Positions 2,387 to 60,274 of a stretch of 64,000 nucleotides of DNA are shown one piece after another; the stretch's first letter is position 1, and each line of letters opens with the position of its first letter. The notes beneath the pieces were generated by a model, which saw nothing but the letters and a program-made list of their open reading frames with translations, ran no database searches and was not told where the DNA came from. A program made the translations under genes and the position numbers. This DNA comes from Candidatus Vogelbacteria bacterium (lineage in GTDB: Bacteria; Patescibacteriota; Minisyncoccia; Phycocordibacterales; XYD1-FULL-46-19): the NCBI GenBank assembly GCA_016188295.1, contig JACPIA010000009.1:1509-65508 (forward strand). The letters run 5' to 3'.

Positions 2387-3640
2387 TCATATATTAACAG
2401 CGCGATTTAACACTTCATCTAAAGCCACCAATTCCGTTTTACCGACACCACGATTGAACCATTCCACCGAATTATTAGCTAACGTTTTGACACTGATTAC
2501 TAAACGATGAGGAATACCAATCAGATCCGCATCACCAAACTTTTCTCCCGCACCTGCTACGCGATCATCAAACAATACTTCAATATTTTTAGCTGACAAT
2601 TCTTCATAAATAGTCTTGGCTTTAGTTGTCACTACCTCATCATTACCGAGCATAATTAAATGAATAGCAAATGGAGCTACATTGTCCGGCCAATTAATAC
2701 CGGTGTCCGTACCGCATAATTCGGCAATTGTACCAAACAAACGCGTTACCCCCAAACCATAACTACCCATCACTACCGACACTCGTTCGCCAGCTTCATT
2801 GACGTAAGTAAGCCCCAAAGCCTCGGCGTATTTAGTACCCAATTTAAAAATATTGCCCACTTCAATCGCCGTCTCTTTAGATAACTCTTTTTCGTCCAAA
2901 CCCAATTCCGCTAACACTTCCGGTCTATAAACCTCATCATTAATCGCGATTTCTTTGTCCCGCGACAAATAAATAATATCCTCACCAGCCGAGCAGATCG
3001 CTTGGAATTCGTGACTGTATTTACTAAAAGTACCACCCGAAGCGAAAGTTAAAAAAGTTTGAGCCCCAATCCCTACTCGATCAAACACTCGCCGATAGGC
3101 CACTTTAGCTTTTTCATAAAAAGTATCCAGTCCAGCTTGATCCACATTAAAGGAGTATAAGTCCTTCATCAAAAACTCACGTCCGCGTAAAATACCGCTT
3201 TTGGCTCGGACCTCATTGCGGAATTTGGTTTGGATTTGGTAAACATACACCGGCAAATCACGATAAGATTGAATGTGATCAATCATCAATTTAGCGAGTG
3301 GCTCCTCGTGAGTAAAACCTAAACCAAGTTCAGTGTCATTTTTTAATTTAGTTTTAAACCAATTGTCCACCACCTCATCACTCCAACGACCAGAGGCCTG
3401 CCAGACCGCTGGATCTTGGAGTGTCGCCAATCGTAATTCTTGACCCCCGATTTTATTCATTTCCTCACGGATAATTTGACTGATTTTATCCAACACGCGC
3501 AAACCTAATGGTAACAAGACATAGACCCCCGCCAATGACTTAGCAATAAAACCACCGCGAATCAATAACTTGGCATTTTTAGCCACCTCATCTTTAGGAT
3601 CCTCCCGCCGCGTCTTGGTAAACAGCTGTGATTGCAACAT
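2387..3640 (-). CDS. proS: Prolyl-tRNA synthetase, short bacterial form without the editing insertion
   Basis: N-terminus LFTKTRREDPKDEVAKNAKLLIRGGFI, class II core motifs, C-terminal anticodon-binding domain. 417 aa. Confidence 0.85.
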   Translation of the reverse strand: MLQSQLFTKTRREDPKDEVAKNAKLLIRGGFIAKSLAGVYVLLPLGLRVLDKISQIIREEMNKIGGQELRLATLQDPAVWQASGRWSDEVVDNWFKTKLKNDTELGLGFTHEEPLAKLMIDHIQSYRDLPVYVYQIQTKFRNEVRAKSGILRGREFLMKDLYSFNVDQAGLDTFYEKAKVAYRRVFDRVGIGAQTFLTFASGGTFSKYSHEFQAICSAGEDIIYLSRDKEIAINDEVYRPEVLAELGLDEKELSKETAIEVGNIFKLGTKYAEALGLTYVNEAGERVSVVMGSYGLGVTRLFGTIAELCGTDTGINWPDNVAPFAIHLIMLGNDEVVTTKAKTIYEELSAKNIEVLFDDRVAGAGEKFGDADLIGIPHRLVISVKTLANNSVEWFNRGVGKTELVALDEVLNRAVNI

Positions 3641-3684: not shown

Positions 3685-4788
3685 TTAAAGTAATCGACTG
3701 ATGTCGTGCCAGGTAACTACAAACATTAGACTAAGTAGTAAAACAAAACCGATTAAATTTAAAATATTGGCAATTCGCGGTTTAATCGGTGAACCCTTAA
3801 TGGACTCAATTAAGACAAAAAGTAGACGTCCTCCATCTAGAGCCGGGAATGGGATTAAATTAAGGACCGCCAAGTTGATGGAAATAAAAGCCACAAATGA
3901 GAGTAAGTAAGCCAAACCAAGAGTCCGGGCATCACCGACTAAACCAGCCAAACCGACCGGTCCAGTCACCGAGTCAAGTGTGGCCAGACCTTGGACCGCT
4001 TGTACCGCCAAATGCCCTAAACCCTGGACTGTTAACTTAGTTAGAGAGATCGTCATCTTAAACGCTTGCCAAGGTGCTTGCCACCACGCAAAAGCAACTG
4101 TACCCACTTGTCCCAGTATCACCCCAAGAGCGGGTTGATTTGGCGCTCCGGCAATCAAGCCCATTTCGGGTTTTACTCGATAATCAACTGTCTCTCCTTT
4201 TGAGGTAACCACTTTTATACTCAGACCATCGCCACTAGTGCTAATAAAATTAATTGCTTGTTTAGCACTAGTGGGCACTAACTCTTCGCCAGCTCGGGTT
4301 AGTAAGAGGACTTGATCGCCGGTTTTAAGACCCACTTTAGCGGCTGGCGTACCTGGCACTATCGTTAAAATAGTTAAGTGGATGTCTTCAACAATGGCAC
4401 TAGCCGGCACACCTTCGACACTCATCGGCACACCGACCCCTAGAGCGATACTCAAAAACAACCAAGCTAAAATAATATTGGCGGTCACTCCTGCTATTAA
4501 TACTAGTGCTTGAGTCCATTTAGATTTAGCGATCAAACTGTCGGGAGTCGAAGTTACCCCCGACACTAGCTCCTCCGGTGTCTCGCCAAAAATACGAACA
4601 AAACCGCCAAATGGGATTAAATTAAGCGAGTAGAGTGTTTCCCCATAACGGATACCAAAAACTTTAGGGGGAAAGCCTAGTCCAAACTCATCCACTCTAA
4701 TACCCGACCACTTAGCTACCACAAAGTGACCCAGCTCGTGGAAAAAGACAAGTACCGCCAAAATAATCAAAAAAATAATGACGGTCAT
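3685..4788 (-). CDS. rseP: Site-2 zinc metalloprotease RseP/RasP with PDZ domain
   Basis: HELGHFVVAK (HExxH) in first TM, central PDZ-like segment, C-terminal LDGG motif (ALDGGRLLF). Confidence 0.85.
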   Translation of the reverse strand: MTVIIFLIILAVLVFFHELGHFVVAKWSGIRVDEFGLGFPPKVFGIRYGETLYSLNLIPFGGFVRIFGETPEELVSGVTSTPDSLIAKSKWTQALVLIAGVTANIILAWLFLSIALGVGVPMSVEGVPASAIVEDIHLTILTIVPGTPAAKVGLKTGDQVLLLTRAGEELVPTSAKQAINFISTSGDGLSIKVVTSKGETVDYRVKPEMGLIAGAPNQPALGVILGQVGTVAFAWWQAPWQAFKMTISLTKLTVQGLGHLAVQAVQGLATLDSVTGPVGLAGLVGDARTLGLAYLLSFVAFISINLAVLNLIPFPALDGGRLLFVLIESIKGSPIKPRIANILNLIGFVLLLSLMFVVTWHDISRLL

Positions 4789-7162: not shown

Positions 7163-7239
7163 AATCACGTCATATCATTTTTCTAAATATCCTTATTTTT
7201 GACGACCGTCTAATATAAGGATGAAATATTGAATTACAA

Positions 7240-7262
7240 CCACAGAGGACCGTCCTATGTGG
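7240..7262. repeat. Solo REP-like palindromic hairpin (CCACAGAGGA-CCG-TCCTATGTGG)
   Basis: Matches, with one mismatch, the hairpins that flank the Y1 transposase gene at 35668-35696 and 36361-36383. Confidence 0.55.
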
Positions 7263-7299
7263 TAAAGGATGTGGTGTAATAAAAACAACAAACCCGCCT

Positions 7300-27933: not shown

Positions 27934-28187
27934 ATTTTCCTTTTTCTCCAAACAGGCCCAATTATTCGTAATTGGGCCTGTGTTATGTCTAAACCCATTG
28001 TCAACCTCACCGGCCTAAAGGCCGGAGCTTGCACTGTTCCGTTCTGCTTCCCATTGCTTGTCGATATATTCACGTACCGTGGCTTCTTTTGGATTTCAAA
28101 AACCCTTGGCGAATTCTGGCGGAAACCCCTGTCGCGTCGCTTTGCGACGGTCCGAATTTTGGCGAAAACGGCGATTCTATTTTTTTG

Positions 28188-33453: not shown

Positions 33454-35664
33454 ATGAAATTGTTAATTGTCGAATCGCCGGCGAAAGCGAAAACTATTTC
33501 TAAATATTTAAATGATGAGTACACCGTCCGCGCGTCGGTGGGTCATATTCGAGATCTCCCTAAATCTAATAAAGATGCGATTGACATCAAAGCCGGCTTT
33601 ATCCCCCACTACGAGATTAGTAAAGGTAAAGAGAAGGTCGTGGCCGATTTAAAAGCGTTAGCTAAAAAATCAAGTGAGATCTTACTCGCGACCGACCCCG
33701 ACCGCGAAGGTGAGGCCATTGCTTGGCACGTCGCCGAGATTTTGAATCTCGGAAATAAAAAATCCGAAATAACAAATAACAAAATTAAACGTGTCGTCTT
33801 TCATGAGATTACTAAAGAGGCGGTGCAAGAAGCAATTAAACAACCACGCGATATTGATGATGATTTGCGGCGCGCGCAAGAAGCGCGCCGCGTTCTCGAT
33901 CGCCTCTTTGGTTATGATCTCTCCGGTCTTATTTGGCAAAAAGTCCGCTATGGCCTCTCGGCTGGCCGGGTACAATCTCCAGCCCTCCGGATTTTAGTCG
34001 AGCGTGAACGCGAGATTAAAACCTTTATCCCTGAGGCCTTTTGGGTCTTAACCGGTTTATTTAAACTAAAAAACGGTACCGAAATGCCCGCCACTTGTGT
34101 GGTCGAGCCTAAGACCGAAGCTGAGGCTAATGACATTGTATCTCGAGGCCAAAAAGCTACTTGGCAAATTAATGACGTTGAGGAGAGTGAGACTAAACGC
34201 CAACCGCGCGCGCCCTTTACCACCTCAACTTTACAACAAACCGCCTCCTCGCGTTTAGGCTACTCGCCAAGCATGACTATGCGCCTAGCTCAAAAGTTAT
34301 ATGAGGCCGGACACATTACTTACATGCGTACCGACAGTACTAATTTAAGCCAAGTAGCAATTAAAGAGATTGAGCAAGTCGTTAATAAACAATATGGCGC
34401 GGGCTTATTTGAGTATCACGCTTACACTACTAAAAGTAAAAATGCCCAAGAGGCTCACGAGGCGGTCCGCCCCACTCACGCCTCCATTAAAAGTGCCGGC
34501 GCCAGTGGACCAGAAAAAAAGTTATATGAATTAATTTGGCAACGGGCCGTGGCCAGTCAAATGCAGACGGCTTTAATTAAGCGGACTAAAATTACACTCA
34601 AAGCTAGCGACGCTAAAGTACCCCTTTATGCCACTAACGGCTCGCGCACCATCTCCCCCGGCTGGTTATTAGCCGATCCGGACGCTCGCGGGGAGGAGGT
34701 GGAGTTGCCTGAGGTCAATATGGACGACTCCGTGACTGTTATTAAATTAGAATCGGAAGGTAAAGAAACCCTCCCACCTAATCGCTACACCGAAGCTGGT
34801 TTAGTTAAGGAATTGGAAAAACGTGGTATTGGCCGCCCGAGTACCTACGCCAGTATTATTAAAACGGTCATTGATCGCGGTTATGTCAATAAAGAGGGTC
34901 GGGCGTTAAAACCAACCGAAATCGGTGAGGTGGTCAGCACTTTTTTAGAGAATCATTTTGGTAATTATATTAGTGATTCCTTTACTGCCGAGATGGAGGA
35001 TGAGCTCGATGAGATCGCCACCGGCAAACGAGAGTACACTAAAACGCTTGAAGATTTTTACACTCCCTTTACTAAAAGTGTCAGGGAGAAAAAGGACATC
35101 ACTAAAATTACCGACCTTGGCCCGGCTCCGGCGGAGATGAAATGCCCGGAGTGTAACGGCCAAATGATTATTAAATTAAGCCGGACGGGTAAGTTTTACA
35201 GTTGTGCTCGCTTTCCCGACTGTACTGGCGCCCGGACGATGGAGGGCAATGTTTTAGAAGGTCCAAAAGAGACGGGCGAAAAATGCCCTGATTGTGTCAA
35301 GGGCAAATTAGTCTCACGCGAGGGCCGCTTTGGGATGTTTGTGGCTTGTAACCGTTACCCTAAATGTAAATTTATTAAAAAAGATGATACTGCCGAGCAA
35401 CCGGGCGACACTGGGGTAACGTGCCCCATTTGTAAAACGGGTACTATGGTAGAGAAGCGCGGTCGCTTTGGCTTATTTTATGGCTGCTCCAACTACCCTA
35501 AATGTAAACATATTATTAAAAGTAAGCCGACGGGCCAAATCTGTAATTACCATCGTGAAATTGGCCCCTGCACCCAATTAATGATGGAAGGGACCAAAAC
35601 CATCCCCGAGCGTTGTAGCGACAAAGCATGTCCCAACCACAATCCTCATAAACTCCCAAAATAG
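33454..35664 (+). CDS. topA: DNA topoisomerase I with C-terminal zinc ribbons
   Basis: MKLLIVESPAKAKTISKYL (Toprim), active-site region with Tyr (GHITYMRTDS), four C4 zinc-ribbon motifs at the C-terminus. Confidence 0.9.
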   Translation: MKLLIVESPAKAKTISKYLNDEYTVRASVGHIRDLPKSNKDAIDIKAGFIPHYEISKGKEKVVADLKALAKKSSEILLATDPDREGEAIAWHVAEILNLGNKKSEITNNKIKRVVFHEITKEAVQEAIKQPRDIDDDLRRAQEARRVLDRLFGYDLSGLIWQKVRYGLSAGRVQSPALRILVEREREIKTFIPEAFWVLTGLFKLKNGTEMPATCVVEPKTEAEANDIVSRGQKATWQINDVEESETKRQPRAPFTTSTLQQTASSRLGYSPSMTMRLAQKLYEAGHITYMRTDSTNLSQVAIKEIEQVVNKQYGAGLFEYHAYTTKSKNAQEAHEAVRPTHASIKSAGASGPEKKLYELIWQRAVASQMQTALIKRTKITLKASDAKVPLYATNGSRTISPGWLLADPDARGEEVELPEVNMDDSVTVIKLESEGKETLPPNRYTEAGLVKELEKRGIGRPSTYASIIKTVIDRGYVNKEGRALKPTEIGEVVSTFLENHFGNYISDSFTAEMEDELDEIATGKREYTKTLEDFYTPFTKSVREKKDITKITDLGPAPAEMKCPECNGQMIIKLSRTGKFYSCARFPDCTGARTMEGNVLEGPKETGEKCPDCVKGKLVSREGRFGMFVACNRYPKCKFIKKDDTAEQPGDTGVTCPICKTGTMVEKRGRFGLFYGCSNYPKCKHIIKSKPTGQICNYHREIGPCTQLMMEGTKTIPERCSDKACPNHNPHKLPK

Positions 35665-35667
35665 AAT

Positions 35668-36348
35668 CTACCACAGAGGACCGTCCTCTGTGGTAGTAAG
35701 TGTGTTATAATTTAGCCAATCTTCTAAAAATTGTTCAAAATCCAAATTGGACTCAAAATAGGTTGGGAAAGATTTTTGGTCTAAAATCCTAGATTCTTGG
35801 CGACTATCACCAATATAATCTTGATAGCTAGAATATCGGTAATCAGACAAATATTTCTTGGTTTTAATTATATTTTTTATACCATCTTCCCGCCAATTTG
35901 GTTCAATTAATTTAACTGGGTTTAAATGAATATAAGAAAACAAGTATTTAAGGTAGCGATCAGCATCAATATATTGGGCTTGAAAACGACTCTCAAATAG
36001 AGAACCACGTCTTTTCTTGGTCAAATTAAAATACATCGAATAAGCCGTCAGCAATTTCTTCATAAACAAACTAGTCCCGCCCTCTCGATGCTCTCGAATC
36101 AATAAATGGAAATGGTTAGGCATTAGACAATAAGAACCAATACTGACTAATGTTTTTTGTCGATCAAAGTCAAAAATTTTATTTGGTGGTATATCTCGTA
36201 CTGTGATACTCCTAGTAGAATTACAAAGGTAGAGTAGTTTAATAAAACGATTATAATCAGAGTGATTTAGAAAAATATTTCTTTTGTCATTGCCACGGCT
36301 GTAAATATGATAATATTCATCAATGGCAAATTCGATCTTACGTTCCAT
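35668..36348 (-). CDS. Y1 HuH tyrosine transposase (IS200-like / REP-associated RAYT-like)
   Basis: HuH motif CLMPNHFHLLI. Downstream catalytic-Tyr motif YIHLNPVKL, as in RAYTs (YIxxNPV). 226 aa. Confidence 0.65.
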   Translation of the reverse strand: MERKIEFAIDEYYHIYSRGNDKRNIFLNHSDYNRFIKLLYLCNSTRSITVRDIPPNKIFDFDRQKTLVSIGSYCLMPNHFHLLIREHREGGTSLFMKKLLTAYSMYFNLTKKRRGSLFESRFQAQYIDADRYLKYLFSYIHLNPVKLIEPNWREDGIKNIIKTKKYLSDYRYSSYQDYIGDSRQESRILDQKSFPTYFESNLDFEQFLEDWLNYNTLTTTEDGPLW

Positions 36349-36383
36349 TACTACATCTTACCACAGAGGACGGTCCTCTGTGG
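35668..36383 (-). mobile_element. IS200/RAYT-like minimal element: Y1 (HuH) transposase gene bracketed by inverted REP-like hairpins
   Basis: Hairpins CTACCACAGAGGA-CCG-TCCTCTGTGGTAG (35668-35696) and CCACAGAGGA-CGG-TCCTCTGTGG (36361-36383) flank the ORF exactly. The interior is visibly more AT-rich than topA and rel on either side. Confidence 0.65.
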
Positions 36384-36407
36384 TGGTGGACATGGTATAA
36401 TTTTAAA

Positions 36408-37847
36408 ATGGCAGAAATATCTGGATTAAAAGAGTTAATTGATCTATTACCGGCTGATACCCAAATTGGTTTAATTGAGCGAGCGTACACGTTTGCGACC
36501 CAAGCCCATGCTGGTCAAAAAAGATTTTCCGGCGAGGACTATATTACTCACCCGGTGGAGGTAGCTAAAATTTTAGCCACCATGCGAGCCGATATCGAGA
36601 CCATTGTCGCCGGCCTTCTTCATGATGTTTTAGAAGACACTACAGTAACTCGCCCAGAATTGGTTAAAGAATTTGGTGAGACGGTCACTTTTTTAGTCGA
36701 CGGCGTTACTAAACTCGGTCAACTTAAATACCAAGGAGTAGAGCGCCACGTTGAGAGCCTACGCAAATTATTTGTGGCAATGGCTAAAGATTTGCGGGTA
36801 ATTATGATCCGCTTAGCTGACCGCCTGCATAATATCCGGACTTTAAATCATATCCCTAAGAATAAACAAAAACGAATCGCCATCGAGACGCTGGAAATTT
36901 ACGCTCCGCTCGCTAATCGTCTCGGAATGTGGAAAATCAAAGGCAGTTTAGAAGATAGTGCCTTTCCTTACGCTTACCCTAAAGAGTATGCGCTGGTAGT
37001 GACTTTGCGTAAGACTAAAGGCCGGGAGAGTGTTAAGCGATTAGAAAAGTTGTATCGCACTCTTTCACGTGAAGCTATCACTCAAGGGATTAAAGATATT
37101 AAAATTGAATATCGGATCAAATATTTATACAGCTTGTATGAAAAGTTAAAGAAACATGATATGAATATTGATCAAATTTACGATCTCTCGGCCTTACGCG
37201 TGATTGTGCCAACAGTAGCTGACTGTTACCAAATACTCGGTTTAATCCATACTTTGTGGAAACCGGTCTCTGGCCGTCTTAAGGATTATGTAGCCAATCC
37301 TAAACCTAATGGCTATCAAAGTATTCACACCACTATTTTTGTGGGAGATAACAGTATGGCTGAAGTTCAGATTCGCACCGAGCTTATGCATGAGAAAGCG
37401 GAGTATGGTGTAGCCTCGCATTTAATTTACGACGAGCACGGCAAAACTAAAAAGACCCGCTTGACTGATCCTAAATTGGCCTGGCTTAATAAATTACTCG
37501 AGTGGCAAAAACATCCTCATCAATCGGAGGATTATCTGGCCATCCTTAAAACTGACTTTTTTGAGGATCGGATTTTTGTCTTTACGCCCAAAGGCGATGT
37601 TATTGAGCTACCGGTGGGAGCAACGCCCCTTGATTTTGCATATGCTATCCACTCCGAGATTGGTGATCATGCTAATGGTGCCACGGTAAATGGTAAATTT
37701 GTGGCTTTGATGACCCCACTAAAAACTGATGACATAGTCCTGATTGAAACTAAAAAATCAAGTAAACCTTCCGTTAAGTGGCTGGAACATGTTAAAACCG
37801 GCATGGCCCGCAAACACATTAAGTCGTATATTCAAAAATTGAATTAA
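36408..37847 (+). CDS. rel: Short RelA/SpoT-homolog (HD hydrolase, synthetase and TGS domains; no ACT domain)
   Basis: HPVEVAKILA...HDVLEDT (HD). RVIV...GRLKDYVANPKPNGYQSIHT (synthetase). IFVFTPKGDVIELPVGATPLDFAYAIHSEIG (TGS). Confidence 0.85.
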   Translation: MAEISGLKELIDLLPADTQIGLIERAYTFATQAHAGQKRFSGEDYITHPVEVAKILATMRADIETIVAGLLHDVLEDTTVTRPELVKEFGETVTFLVDGVTKLGQLKYQGVERHVESLRKLFVAMAKDLRVIMIRLADRLHNIRTLNHIPKNKQKRIAIETLEIYAPLANRLGMWKIKGSLEDSAFPYAYPKEYALVVTLRKTKGRESVKRLEKLYRTLSREAITQGIKDIKIEYRIKYLYSLYEKLKKHDMNIDQIYDLSALRVIVPTVADCYQILGLIHTLWKPVSGRLKDYVANPKPNGYQSIHTTIFVGDNSMAEVQIRTELMHEKAEYGVASHLIYDEHGKTKKTRLTDPKLAWLNKLLEWQKHPHQSEDYLAILKTDFFEDRIFVFTPKGDVIELPVGATPLDFAYAIHSEIGDHANGATVNGKFVALMTPLKTDDIVLIETKKSSKPSVKWLEHVKTGMARKHIKSYIQKLN

Positions 37848-41938: not shown

Positions 41939-41968
41939 AAAAATAGGCTGTCCTCCAGCCTATTTTTT
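41939..41968. terminator. Bidirectional intrinsic terminator (A5-TAGGCTG-tcctc-CAGCCTA-T6)
   Basis: Hairpin flanked by an A-run and a T-run. Overlaps the rpmG stop codon. Confidence 0.45.
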
Positions 41969-49152: not shown

Positions 49153-49620
49153 ATGAGAGATATGTTGCCACTCGAAGGCCCCTACATTTTAATTTACGCT
49201 TTAATTTTAATCGTGGTGATTTTAATTAGTTGGATTGTTTATTTAGAGCATCGACTCAATCGCTGGTGGCGTGGTAAAAAAGCCAGTGATTTAGAGAGTG
49301 TGATGATTGCCATTGGCGGAGCGATTGATGATTTTGAGACCCGGCATGGCGTGATTAATGAGCAATTAATCGACATTAACCGTCGTCTAAAAAAGAGTGT
49401 CCAAAAAGTTCAGACCTTACGCTACAACCCTTTTCGTGATCAAGGTGGTAATCAAAGTTTTACTACCGCTCTCATCAATGAAGAAGGTGACGGCGTGATA
49501 ATCTCCAGTATTTACTCTCGCGATAAAGTCAGTGTCTACAGCAAACCAATCCGAGGACTCTCCTCGGAATATGAATTAACTGATGAAGAGCGTGAGGTTT
49601 TAGAACAGACGAAGAAGTAA
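49153..49620 (+). CDS. DUF4446-like membrane-anchored protein
   Basis: N-terminal TM. RYNPFRDQGGNQSFTTALINEEGDGVIISSIYSRDKVSVYSKP resembles DUF4446 proteins (recalled from memory). Confidence 0.4.
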   Translation: MRDMLPLEGPYILIYALILIVVILISWIVYLEHRLNRWWRGKKASDLESVMIAIGGAIDDFETRHGVINEQLIDINRRLKKSVQKVQTLRYNPFRDQGGNQSFTTALINEEGDGVIISSIYSRDKVSVYSKPIRGLSSEYELTDEEREVLEQTKK

Positions 49621-52134: not shown

Positions 52135-52425
52135 CGTAGGAAAAGTCAATGCCTCGCGGCGCGGAACGCGCCGCTCGGCGACCAAATCGTACGGATTTTT
52201 CGGGGCAAAAAGAAATTCCCGATTCCGTAAAATATGGTTCGCGCCGATGTTTTTCATAAATGTTGTCATTTCGGAAAGATTTTCTGATTCCAGTAAGTTA
52301 GTGGCTTGATTTAAGGATTTTACGAACTCACGAGCCGGTTCGAGCCAAGACAAACCTTTTTGTTCAAAGTCGACAATTTTCTCTTGCAAAGATACTTTCT
52401 GCAAGATGAGAACGTTCTTTTCCAA
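52081..52425 (-). pseudogene. Possible gene remnant (114-aa ORF whose 3' end runs antisense through tRNA-Leu)
   Basis: ORF with coding-like N-terminus (LSWLEPAREFVKSLNQATNLLESEN) and no stop before it overlaps the tRNA by 54 nt. Could be a disrupted gene or an artefact. Confidence 0.15.
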
Positions 52426-52530
52426 GAAGCGGCACTTGCCGCTTCTTGACTTTTATGGTCTGATATGCTATCCTTGGATGAAATCCAAGCATGGTGCTTA
52501 GATAAGTTGAACCTTGAAAAGGAGGCAAAT

Positions 52531-58975: not shown

Positions 58976-60274
58976 TTATTTCATTAAAGCGTTTAATTCA
59001 TCATCCGCCCGTCGCACCGCTTGTGCCGAGAGCACTCGACCAGTCCCCACCGCATCAATTAGCAAGTTAAAAATCCGATTACTTTGAGTCGGATCCGGAT
59101 CAAGCCAAGTACGAGCCAATAATGCTGATTGATACACTACCGTGCCAAAAGCGCTCTCTACGCCCGCCGCGAGCAAGTCGCGGCGGGCCGGCGCTACGCC
59201 TAATTGATCCGCCATTAACGCCACACTCTCCGGCGCGGCTAAAAGCTTGGCCGCCGCTTGAGCGGCGGCCAGTTGTTTGGTCGAGCGGACAACCGCCACT
59301 CCTTGAAAACGTCCGATAGTCTGCTTACGACTAGTTTGGTCGCGTTGAGGTATTATCGCGGCATCAAAGTTTAAATTAGGATTCTTGACCACTAGGCGCG
59401 GACGCTCGCTGGCATAACCCAAATACAACGCTAAAGAACCGATAGTAAAAAAATCTTGAGCATTAGGTAACGCTCGACTCCAAGTGTAAGTGGTCTTAGT
59501 TGGTGCGGCAAACTGAGTGTAAAAATCAATAGCGGCCTCAGCTGGTGCTGGTACAAAACCATAAGCATCAGCCAAGTTACTGACTGGTATCCCCCGTTCA
59601 TAGGCGGTAATGGGTGTCCCGGCCTGCATTGAGAGTAAAGCAACAATATCTTTAGCGTGAGGGACATTAGTACTCTCACCTAAAGCAATCGCACTTTGTT
59701 TAATGATTTTATTGTCACCAAACACTGTTAGATTATTGACAATATTTAAGACCTCACTCCAGCGCTCGGGCACTCGGACAATTCCGGCATTAGTCACCAA
59801 GTCACGATTGTAATAAAGCATCAGTGGATCAATAGTCAATGGTAGAGCCAGCACTCCTTCCGGCGCGATAAAAATCTGAGCCCCCTCCACAAAATTATTT
59901 TTAAAAGTGGCTAACGGATACGTTTTAGCATCAAACGGAGTCAATTTATTACGTTGACGGATAATCATCGTATCATTAAATAGTAATAAGTCAGGTCCGG
60001 CACCTTGAGTCAGAGCTTCCACTAAATCACTCTCAAGCTGCTCCGGCGCTTTATAAACATAATTAATACTAAATTGTTTTTTGGCCGCTTTATTGACCTC
60101 ATTGATTACCGGCTCCATTACTGGAAGTGAATTAGTCCCCCACAAAGTGAGCCTGATACTATTATTGGCTAATCCACCACTGTAGCCCGGTATTATTCCT
60201 GAAAACACTAACACCCCGATAATCAAAGCCGCCCCAAAAACGATCAGTAAAATAATTTGAAACCAGTCTTTCAT
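58976..60274 (-). CDS. Membrane-anchored extracellular solute-binding protein (family-1 SBP fold-like)
   Basis: N-terminal TM anchor, then LTLWGTNSLPVMEPVINEVNKAAKK...GAGPDLLLFNDTM... resembling sugar-type SBPs. No permease or ATPase genes nearby. Confidence 0.5.
   Translation of the reverse strand: MKDWFQIILLIVFGAALIIGVLVFSGIIPGYSGGLANNSIRLTLWGTNSLPVMEPVINEVNKAAKKQFSINYVYKAPEQLESDLVEALTQGAGPDLLLFNDTMIIRQRNKLTPFDAKTYPLATFKNNFVEGAQIFIAPEGVLALPLTIDPLMLYYNRDLVTNAGIVRVPERWSEVLNIVNNLTVFGDNKIIKQSAIALGESTNVPHAKDIVALLSMQAGTPITAYERGIPVSNLADAYGFVPAPAEAAIDFYTQFAAPTKTTYTWSRALPNAQDFFTIGSLALYLGYASERPRLVVKNPNLNFDAAIIPQRDQTSRKQTIGRFQGVAVVRSTKQLAAAQAAAKLLAAPESVALMADQLGVAPARRDLLAAGVESAFGTVVYQSALLARTWLDPDPTQSNRIFNLLIDAVGTGRVLSAQAVRRADDELNALMK

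Follow-up and report, generated by a model that had tools for sequence, protein, structure and literature searches.

A hairpin-bounded Y1 nuclease gene at the topA-rel junction of a Candidatus Vogelbacteria genome, and its family of relatives in Patescibacteria

The stretch of Candidatus Vogelbacteria DNA analysed here, 64 kb in length and referred to as the window throughout, carries between the housekeeping genes topA and rel an inserted segment that contains the gene of a Y1 protein with HUH and tyrosine motifs and, on either side of this gene, one copy of a palindrome. Patescibacteria have tiny genomes, from which few mobile elements have been described. The segment is most readily explained, with a probability of about 0.72, as a compact cassette of the REPtron/TIRtron type, in which the gene of a class-2 Y1 nuclease is bounded by palindromes that are predicted to be its hairpin targets in single-stranded DNA (ssDNA). 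This kind of cassette is known; its large branch in Patescibacteria is apparently undescribed and shows unusual features at the family level. A search of the accessible literature found no paper that ties repetitive extragenic palindromes (REPs), REP-associated tyrosine transposases (RAYTs) or TIRYT genes to the candidate phyla radiation (CPR)/Patescibacteria. The features of the window on which the analysis is based are the following:

35655..36424, no strand: inserted cassette of ~770 bp, with ends placed to within ~3 nt (junction alignments to the related loci L124 and L126, gene order of these relatives, fall in GC content)
35668..36348, - strand: gene of the Y1 HUH/Tyr nuclease, 226 aa, with HUH motif H79-F-H81, Tyr motif Y139-IHLNP and a C-terminal tail with YSSY (Pfam, alignments, AlphaFold model)
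36360..36384: upstream (5') cognate hairpin with an 11-bp stem and a central G on the + strand, i.e. C on the gene strand (sequence, shuffles, folding)
35668..35696: downstream (3') cognate hairpin, a perfect palindrome of 29 nt with its core at 35670-35694 (sequence, folding)
36355..36363, - strand: extended -10-like box TGgTAAGAT, formed in part by the hairpin foot and ending 6 nt before the ATG (sequence; the geometry recurs in ~50 of 79 homologous loci)
35695..35711, + strand: inward flank of the 3' hairpin, an extension of the inverted repeat, with TGtTATAAT (35703-35711) antisense to the gene (flank comparison)
36385..36424, + strand: outer right segment of the insert, with TGgTATAAT (36393-36401), 6 nt and the new rel start codon (36408) (sequence and relatives)
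35655..35669, + strand: outer left segment of the insert, with the last two topA codons and the stop codon (junction alignment)
7239..7281, + strand: solo copy of the hairpin (7239-7263, 1 mismatch) with ~18 nt resembling the promoter-side flank (flank comparison, folding)

Gene and hairpins of the cassette

A preliminary description of this DNA had reported a 226-aa HuH protein with the motifs NHFHLLI and YIHLNPVK between two inverted copies of a palindrome. The open reading frame (ORF) at 35668..36348 indeed encodes this protein, whose translation contains PNHFHLLI and YIHLNPVK, and it is bounded on both sides by a 25-nt palindrome of the form ACCACAGAGGAC-C/G-GTCCTCTGTGGT, present as ACCACAGAGGACCGTCCTCTGTGGT at 35670-35694 and as ACCACAGAGGACGGTCCTCTGTGGT at 36360-36384. 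With the solo copy, which had been noticed near position 7240, the palindrome is not unique to the locus; its three occurrences in the window compare with an expectation of 0, as none was obtained in 100 dinucleotide shuffles. Each copy is built of 12+1+12 nucleotides, and within the palindrome only the central base (C or G) reveals its orientation. When the copies are read with C in the centre, all three are followed by a similar 3' flank (A..AAG.TGT.GT.TAAT), so that the two copies at the gene are truly inverted, with the flank facing inward, and hairpin and flank together form inverted repeats of ~45 nt. An extended inverted repeat of this kind was also seen at the related locus L064. Inversion, as described earlier, is borne out by the shared inward flank.

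The downstream hairpin covers the final nine codons and the stop of the Y1 gene, the last three bases of the palindrome on the - strand being the TAG stop codon, which agrees with the reported overlap of hairpin and gene end. It is followed on the - strand by ATTCTATTTT, a terminator-like arrangement. Folding of the three hairpins of the window as ssDNA gave -14.0, -11.7 and -8.8 kcal/mol; relative to shuffles, these energies correspond to z-scores of -7.7, -4.7 and -5.6. The solo copy is intergenic and lies 37 nt past the stop of a 680-aa gene on the - strand and 144 nt upstream of mreB. The AT-rich character ascribed to the interior of the element is reflected in a GC content of 33-35% versus 43-48% in the neighbours topA and rel, and the CPR/Patescibacteria-like appearance of the genome is matched by the annotation of its source as Candidatus Vogelbacteria. 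Moreover, a protein search found exactly this Y1 protein on record from a Candidatus Vogelbacteria metagenome-assembled genome. An Rfam scan of the window detected tRNAs only.

Insertion at the topA-rel junction

Rel has relatives with 91% and 86% identity, whereas the nearest Y1 relative reaches only ~60%. These two relatives, L124 and L126 (L-numbers denote loci of relatives), show the same gene order dus-POTRA-serS-dprA-topA-rel-parB as the window, and in both of them no DNA separates topA from rel, the two genes sharing an overlap of 37 nt. This empty site in two close relatives identifies the ~770 bp at 35655-36424 as a real insertion, in line with the position between topA and rel that had been proposed. 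The cassette came into this lineage in one piece, at a site where two housekeeping genes overlapped; its ends and its target are derived here from this one insertion event. No clear target duplication can be read at the junctions, which have a 3-nt ambiguity (ACT/ATT).

Of the inserted DNA, 15 nt lie beyond the left hairpin and 40 nt beyond the right hairpin. The end of topA was changed from ..KL-KS* in the relatives to ..KL-PK* in the window, and the insert replaced the first nine codons of rel together with its promoter, by which the N-terminus MPQSQSPQI of the relatives became MAEISGL. In the relatives rel starts 37 nt inside topA, whereas in the window it is preceded by TGgTATAAT and a distance of 6 nt to the ATG (36393-36410), all located in inserted DNA and showing the same leaderless geometry as the genes of the Y1 family itself. 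The cassette now supplies the 3' end of topA as well as the promoter and the start codon of rel. The ~34 kb available from relatives that lack the cassette at topA-rel contain no copy of the palindrome or of the Y1 gene, which is weak evidence. In L126 a different insertion of ~900 bp (2915-3568) is present between dprA and topA; its GC-rich 217-aa ORF was considered as a Y1 homologue and rejected, as it has no Pfam match and no similarity to the Y1 family.

Sequence and predicted fold of the Y1 protein

The Pfam profile Y1_Tnp (PF01797), suggested earlier as a check, matched the window protein with 29.8 bits against a cut-off of 23, the match being confined to profile positions 37-119, the C-terminal two thirds of the model. 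The same profile matched 20 of the 20 members of alignment A1. Alignments of 20 and 120 sequences revealed N78, H79, H81, Y139, N143 and K146 as invariant residues; these are kept in the window protein, as are the nearly invariant P144 and the tail motifs SS and W. With the family-conserved residues in place, the protein looks intact. Its motifs NHFH and YIHLNP, the latter a Tyr motif of the Y...NP type, place it in class 2.

An AlphaFold (AF2) model calculated from the 120-sequence alignment reached a predicted local distance difference test score (pLDDT) of 89.5 and a predicted template modelling score (pTM) of 0.86. The best match of this model among solved folds was 4er8_A, the TnpA_REP protein of E. 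coli bound to a REP hairpin (E 3e-6), followed by the TnpA structures of IS608 and ISDra2; a weaker first model agreed with this result. Searches of the PDB with the single sequence and with a profile yielded no usable match, and the fold search alone succeeded.

A patescibacterial family with cognate hairpins

A word-indexed search among 5.8 billion proteins yielded 5,842 relatives of the window protein. The best 120 of them are 53-62% identical to it, 214-253 aa long and patescibacterial wherever labelled. An exhaustive profile search resulted in 942 clusters at 50% identity (E<=1e-30). In addition, 80 homologous loci were taken from metagenomes. Hairpins with the pattern AGG-N5-CCT are located upstream of the gene in 65 of 81 loci and at its 3' end in 64; the centre of the upstream hairpin has a median distance of -39 nt from the ATG, and the 3' hairpin is found next to the stop codon or covers it. 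Conservation is limited to the top of the stem, namely AGG, five bases and CCT. The A of AGG and the T of CCT were not imposed by the search and are nevertheless present in 97-100% of the copies.

The remainder of the hairpin varies between loci in a concerted manner. Between the cognate hairpins at the two ends of a gene, the median number of differences over the 15 variable positions is 1, compared with 10 for non-cognate pairs, and paralogues located on one contig each possess their own, different hairpin (L072, L077, L093). Paralogues in related contigs are only 31-49% identical. These data clearly indicate that protein and hairpin come as cognate pairs across the family, and that the end copies and an in-frame copy described below co-vary by locus. 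The relative orientation of the upstream and downstream hairpins is inverted in 29 cases, direct in 17 and different in 7. A foot motif of the GT[AG]G/GTAG type was not found, the flanks of 59 upstream and of 60 downstream hairpins, aligned by the foot, containing no more than 0.3 bit per position. Some flanks carry inverted doublets resembling REPINs.

Conserved synteny around the Y1 homologues was not detected among the 80 loci, and collections of plasmids and phages provided distant matches only (24-32% identity). The loci L106 and L111 represent the same context; their cassettes are 91-95% identical and the flanking genes 64-66%, with the high identity starting exactly at the foot of the upstream hairpin and extending into the neighbouring gene on the other side. 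The shared block (L106 6554-7495, L111 587-1520) comprises 949 nt at 91% identity, i.e. the Y1 cassette and the first ~170 nt of the next gene, and suggests a recent exchange between related populations.

Additionally, a DnaA-box-like motif, (A/G)GTTATCCACAG, was observed just outside the flanking hairpins in 22 loci (L044-L123), mostly on the gene strand and at both ends; examples are L050 (at U-64 and D+38), L093 (U-60 and D+19) and L106 (U-49 and D+9). Sites of the sequence TTATCCAC number 31 in 84 kb near the genes versus 49 in 564 kb elsewhere. These sites could serve as a preferred target or mark the element's end. The window's own element lacks the motif, and DnaA boxes are not enriched in the window.

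Coupling of the hairpin to the promoter and a third copy within the gene

In ~50 of 79 loci the end of a TATAAT-like box is separated from the ATG by 6-7 nt, which implies a leaderless mRNA. The distance between the hairpin centre and the -10 box falls into three classes. In the class at 27-28 nt, a -35 box with a spacer of 16-17 nt is formed by the 3' hairpin arm (CCTTGACA, CCTTGGAA and the like); an extended -10 box is found in many loci of the class at 23-25 nt; and in the class at 8-12 nt, the hairpin foot contributes the TG of such a box. The window falls into the last class, with TGgTAAGAT and 6 nt to the ATG. The upstream hairpin is therefore built into a promoter that is predicted from the geometry of these boxes to be leaderless.

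A third cognate hairpin is present inside the gene in 24 of 81 loci, always in frame and in a single phase, with its centre at +166 to +184, whereas only four such hairpins occur elsewhere in coding sequences. It differs from the flanking copies of its own locus at a median of 1-2 positions, as against 9 for non-cognate pairs. The copy occupies codons 53-60 and encodes QGLPL, PIGEAY(G), EGLTF and similar peptides, and the footprint x-G-x-[PSTA]-[LFYS] is kept in 55 of 120 homologues. According to the AF2 model the segment is located between helix A and strand 2, ahead of the HUH motif, within a stretch of ~20 residues without counterpart in a Legionella homologue, the only non-CPR homologue compared. 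The window gene has lost the in-frame hairpin and encodes PPNKIF at this site.

The promoter-embedded and in-frame copies suggest self-regulation. We put forward only tentatively that the in-frame copy is functional rather than a tolerated insertion, acting either as a self-target for autoregulation or self-limitation, or as a coupling between the specificity determinant and a protein loop. If this were true, the ~900 divergent clusters would constitute a natural library of matched nuclease-hairpin pairs, of use for deducing the HUH recognition code or for obtaining orthogonal HUH tags.

Dispersal of the palindrome

Cognate hairpins were also found away from the Y1 genes. Over 476 kb, the flanks of related loci contain 15 exact-type cognate copies that are separate from the gene, many of which lie no more than 1 kb away. 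When AGG-N5-CCT hairpins of any sequence are counted, 41 distant ones are present in 498 kb versus 2.2 in shuffles, and 34% of these are intergenic versus 7% of the sequence, a 4.6-fold enrichment. The dispersal is real but modest and well under the densities of classical REPs.

A scan of 185,579 species genomes, among which the source genome is not included, with CCACAGAGGACSGTCCT yielded 42 single matches, and all but one of these look like chance. The exception, L017, is a homologue from Paceibacterota with ~60% identity to the window protein that is flanked by CACAGAGGACCGTCCTCGAC (3941-3966 and 4627-4655), containing the same hairpin core as the window. Its copies are in direct orientation and have a broken lower stem, and its neighbours are a uvrD-like gene and rsmA. 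In a relative matched by its MreB (95% identical), the intergenic region at the position of the solo copy cannot be aligned and contains a different GC-rich hairpin. There, just past the stop of the gene upstream of mreB (L127, 3640-3675), the unrelated hairpin CAGGCCGTCCCGTAAGGACGGCCTG is followed by T-rich sequence, and the solo copy of the window may occupy the position of a terminator.

Two further loci illustrate the variety of dispersed copies. L109 (17470-17830) carries 7 kb from its Y1 gene two cognate hairpins with 14-bp stems (CCAACCATCAAGGACGGTCCTTGATGGTTGG) in direct orientation, 326 nt apart and bounding non-coding DNA, which may represent a non-autonomous derivative. L072 (3176-3198, 9266, 9350, 12720) has two paralogues with different hairpins along with solo hairpins of both types and a hybrid hairpin (ATCAAGGCGAAACCTTGAT); a third hairpin type forms an inverted doublet there that has no gene close to it.

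Comparison with known Y1 systems

Y1 proteins have been divided into class 1, with the Tyr motif Y---Q and including IS200, and the RAYT-like class 2, with Y---NP (Quentin et al. 2018, PMC6006769). In the same study, subclass 2.1 proteins have a median length of 238 aa and are characterized by NH[YF]H, Y[IV]HLNP and the motif SS in the tail, transposases of the IS200 type (subclass 1.1) are core-only proteins of ~150 aa (Table 1), and no REP-like structures were found for subclass 2.1. RAYT Group 1 is the most insertion sequence (IS)-like group of RAYTs, most groups behaving like housekeeping genes (Bertels et al. 2017, PMC5581495). TIRYT/TIRtron genes are flanked by inverted repeats, some of which are self-complementary, and the sequence GGGGWSAS is carried by only some of these terminal inverted repeats (TIRs) (Di Nocera et al. 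2013, PMC3733652). Subclass 2.1 corresponds to RAYT Group 1 and to TIRYT/TIRtron.

The sequence signature of the window protein and its extended inverted repeats best fit subclass 2.1/TIRYT-TIRtron within class 2, an assignment based on this signature and one profile comparison rather than on the hidden Markov models or tree of the cited authors. The window protein has NHFH, YIHLNP, YSSY and 226 aa, in agreement with NH[YF]H, Y[IV]HLNP, SS and ~238 aa, and low-copy inverted repeats flank the gene and overlap its 3' end as in TIRtrons. In the profile comparison, hhalign aligned the family profile to the Legionella plasmid protein WP_131739603, which consists of Y1_Tnp and a weak Bac_DnaA_C tail, with a probability of 99.2 (E 2e-19), and the 26-nt TIR of this Legionella element holds the same AGG-CCTTG-CCT core. 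The patescibacterial branch differs from TIRtrons in several respects. It lacks the C-terminal DnaA-like helix-turn-helix that is frequent in subclass 2.1 relatives (Bac_DnaA_C, HTH_23 and HTH_28 were not detected in the 20 members scanned at Pfam E<=1). Its TIRs are long, near-perfect hairpins without GGGGWSAS, which is also absent from the window's repeats on inspection, and ~20 additional residues between helix A and strand 2 carry the in-frame hairpin. The lack of a GTAG tag distinguishes the patescibacterial hairpins from published subclass 2.1.

The E. coli TnpA_REP protein (RayT/YafM; 4ER8; Ton-Hoang 2012, Messing 2012) is the best structural match and shares the Y...NPV Tyr motif, and in the E. 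coli REPtron inverted cognate palindromes likewise bracket the gene and solo copies occur elsewhere. On the other hand, the two proteins share only 14-16% sequence identity, the window hairpins have no 5' GTAG tag and a far lower copy number, and the window cassette is a recent insertion whereas the E. coli gene is a fixed chromosomal locus. The subclass 2.4 RAYTs of Quentin et al. (2018) also have a cognate hairpin within the nuclease gene that keeps the frame, as found here in related loci; there the inserts are of variable length and lie between HUH and Tyr, whereas the patescibacterial copy has one site and phase before HUH and has been lost from the window's own gene. With IS608 and ISDra2 TnpA the window element has in common the HUH/Y1 fold, subterminal hairpins and insertion without obvious duplication, but it differs by Y...NP instead of Y...Q, an extra C-terminal domain, inverted hairpins and the lack of tnpB and of multiple identical copies. 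The original designation "IS200/RAYT-type" can thus be kept in its RAYT half, for which the 4ER8 match and Y...NP speak, and not in its IS200 half, as the protein is not of the Y...Q type. Likewise, the proposed RAYT/REP pattern holds for the cognate flanking palindromes, but not for the GT[AG]G tag, which is absent, or for the NCBIfam equivalog NF047646 (REP_Tyr_transpos), which gave 42.8 bits and thus remained under its cut-off of 80.

Proposed mode of action and alternative explanations

The anatomy of the cassette, the co-variation and the insertion were observed directly; for the chemistry we use TnpA_REP, IS608 and ISDra2 as models. By analogy with these, the Y1 protein would bind the conserved AGG-N5-CCT top of the hairpin on DNA that replication or repair has rendered single-stranded. 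It would then cut nearby via a 5'-phosphotyrosine at Y139, with a metal held by H79 and H81, and rejoin the ends, by which the whole cassette or only single ends would be moved. When bound to the upstream hairpin, the protein would probably also repress the promoter of the Y1 gene, giving this hairpin the role of an operator.

Several points weigh against a REPtron/TIRtron-type cassette. Hairpin-guided ssDNA cleavage by this branch rests on analogy, and the score of the REP_Tyr_transpos equivalog is low. The mixed hairpin orientation in the family agrees with the rule for IS608 as little as with that for canonical REPtrons, and a conserved cleavage or guide motif such as GTAG is lacking at the hairpin foot. 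The palindrome has a single solo copy in the window and the Y1 gene occurs there only once, and with the nearest homologue at ~60% among 5.8 billion proteins there is no sign of a recent spread of its element. Furthermore, the cassette could have arrived by recombination instead of the activity of its own protein; for L106/L111, where the identity runs into the next gene, recombination is as likely as transposition.

The best surviving alternative, which we nevertheless regard as improbable, is a domesticated and immobile RAYT, a host gene that maintains the hairpins as REPs serving the host as terminators, mRNA stabilisers or regulatory sites. The single gene copy in 64 kb, the low identity of paralogues where these are present, the near absence of the family from plasmids and phages, its size and good conservation, the terminator-like 3' hairpin and the housekeeping-like behaviour of most RAYT groups (PMC5581495) would all suit such a role. 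It is weakened by the absence of the gene at the exact site in two close relatives, the lack of conserved synteny in 80 loci, the AT-richness of the cassette relative to the genome and the L106/L111 cassettes, which are far more alike than their flanks; moreover, the signature points to Group 1, and no other RAYT group is as IS-like as this one (PMC5581495).

It is also decidedly unlikely that the palindromes are expression signals only and no cleavage substrates, the upstream one acting as an operator and the downstream one as a terminator, to which a dimer perhaps binds in double-stranded DNA, and with solo copies as decayed remnants. Such signals would account for the fixed distance of the upstream hairpin from the ATG, for the 3' arm that often provides either a -35 box (for instance TTGACA) or the TG belonging to an extended -10 box, and for the T-run that follows the 3' hairpin on the gene strand; the perfect two-fold symmetry and the conserved AGG/CCT half-sites would suit a dimer binding double-stranded DNA. 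They leave unexplained the in-frame cognate copy at codons 53-60 and the dispersed cognate copies kilobases away, the HUH/Tyr active site is intact, and the nearest structural relative is a hairpin-cleaving nuclease. In addition, roles as a signal and as a nuclease target are mutually compatible. A classical IS of the IS200/IS605 type with strict peel-and-paste transposition, subterminal hairpins and a single active strand is very improbable, for despite the Y1 fold, the subterminal position of the hairpins and a simple insertion without clear target duplication, the Tyr motif is Y...NP, the protein has 226 aa with a conserved tail versus ~150 aa (PMC6006769, Table 1), the hairpins are inverted, tnpB is missing and near-identical copies were not found (one copy in 64 kb, paralogues at 31-49%).

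As a REPtron/TIRtron-type cassette, the element extends this way of life well beyond Proteobacteria and Cyanobacteria and adds to Patescibacteria a very large, conserved family of ssDNA nucleases with matched hairpins, comprising 942 clusters and thousands of sequences. In the window its insertion rewired two core genes, at the end of topA and at the promoter and start codon of rel. The many cognate pairs, including paralogues of the same genome with different hairpins, provide material for studying how HUH proteins read DNA and could yield orthogonal HUH tags.

Other hairpins in the window

Another AGG-N5-CCT hairpin of different sequence (AATCCGAGGACTCTCCTCGGAAT, -8.3 kcal/mol) is located at 49548-49570, inside the ORF 49153-49620 and ~60 nt before its stop codon. 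It may belong, as cognate hairpin, to a paralogue encoded in another part of the genome, or be a chance occurrence, of which ~0.5 is expected per window. Further long perfect hairpins with stems of 11-13 bp, unrelated to the palindrome, occur at 27952-27981, 41939-41967, 52423-52448 and 59162-59188 and are probably terminators; tRNA genes lie near the first two of them.

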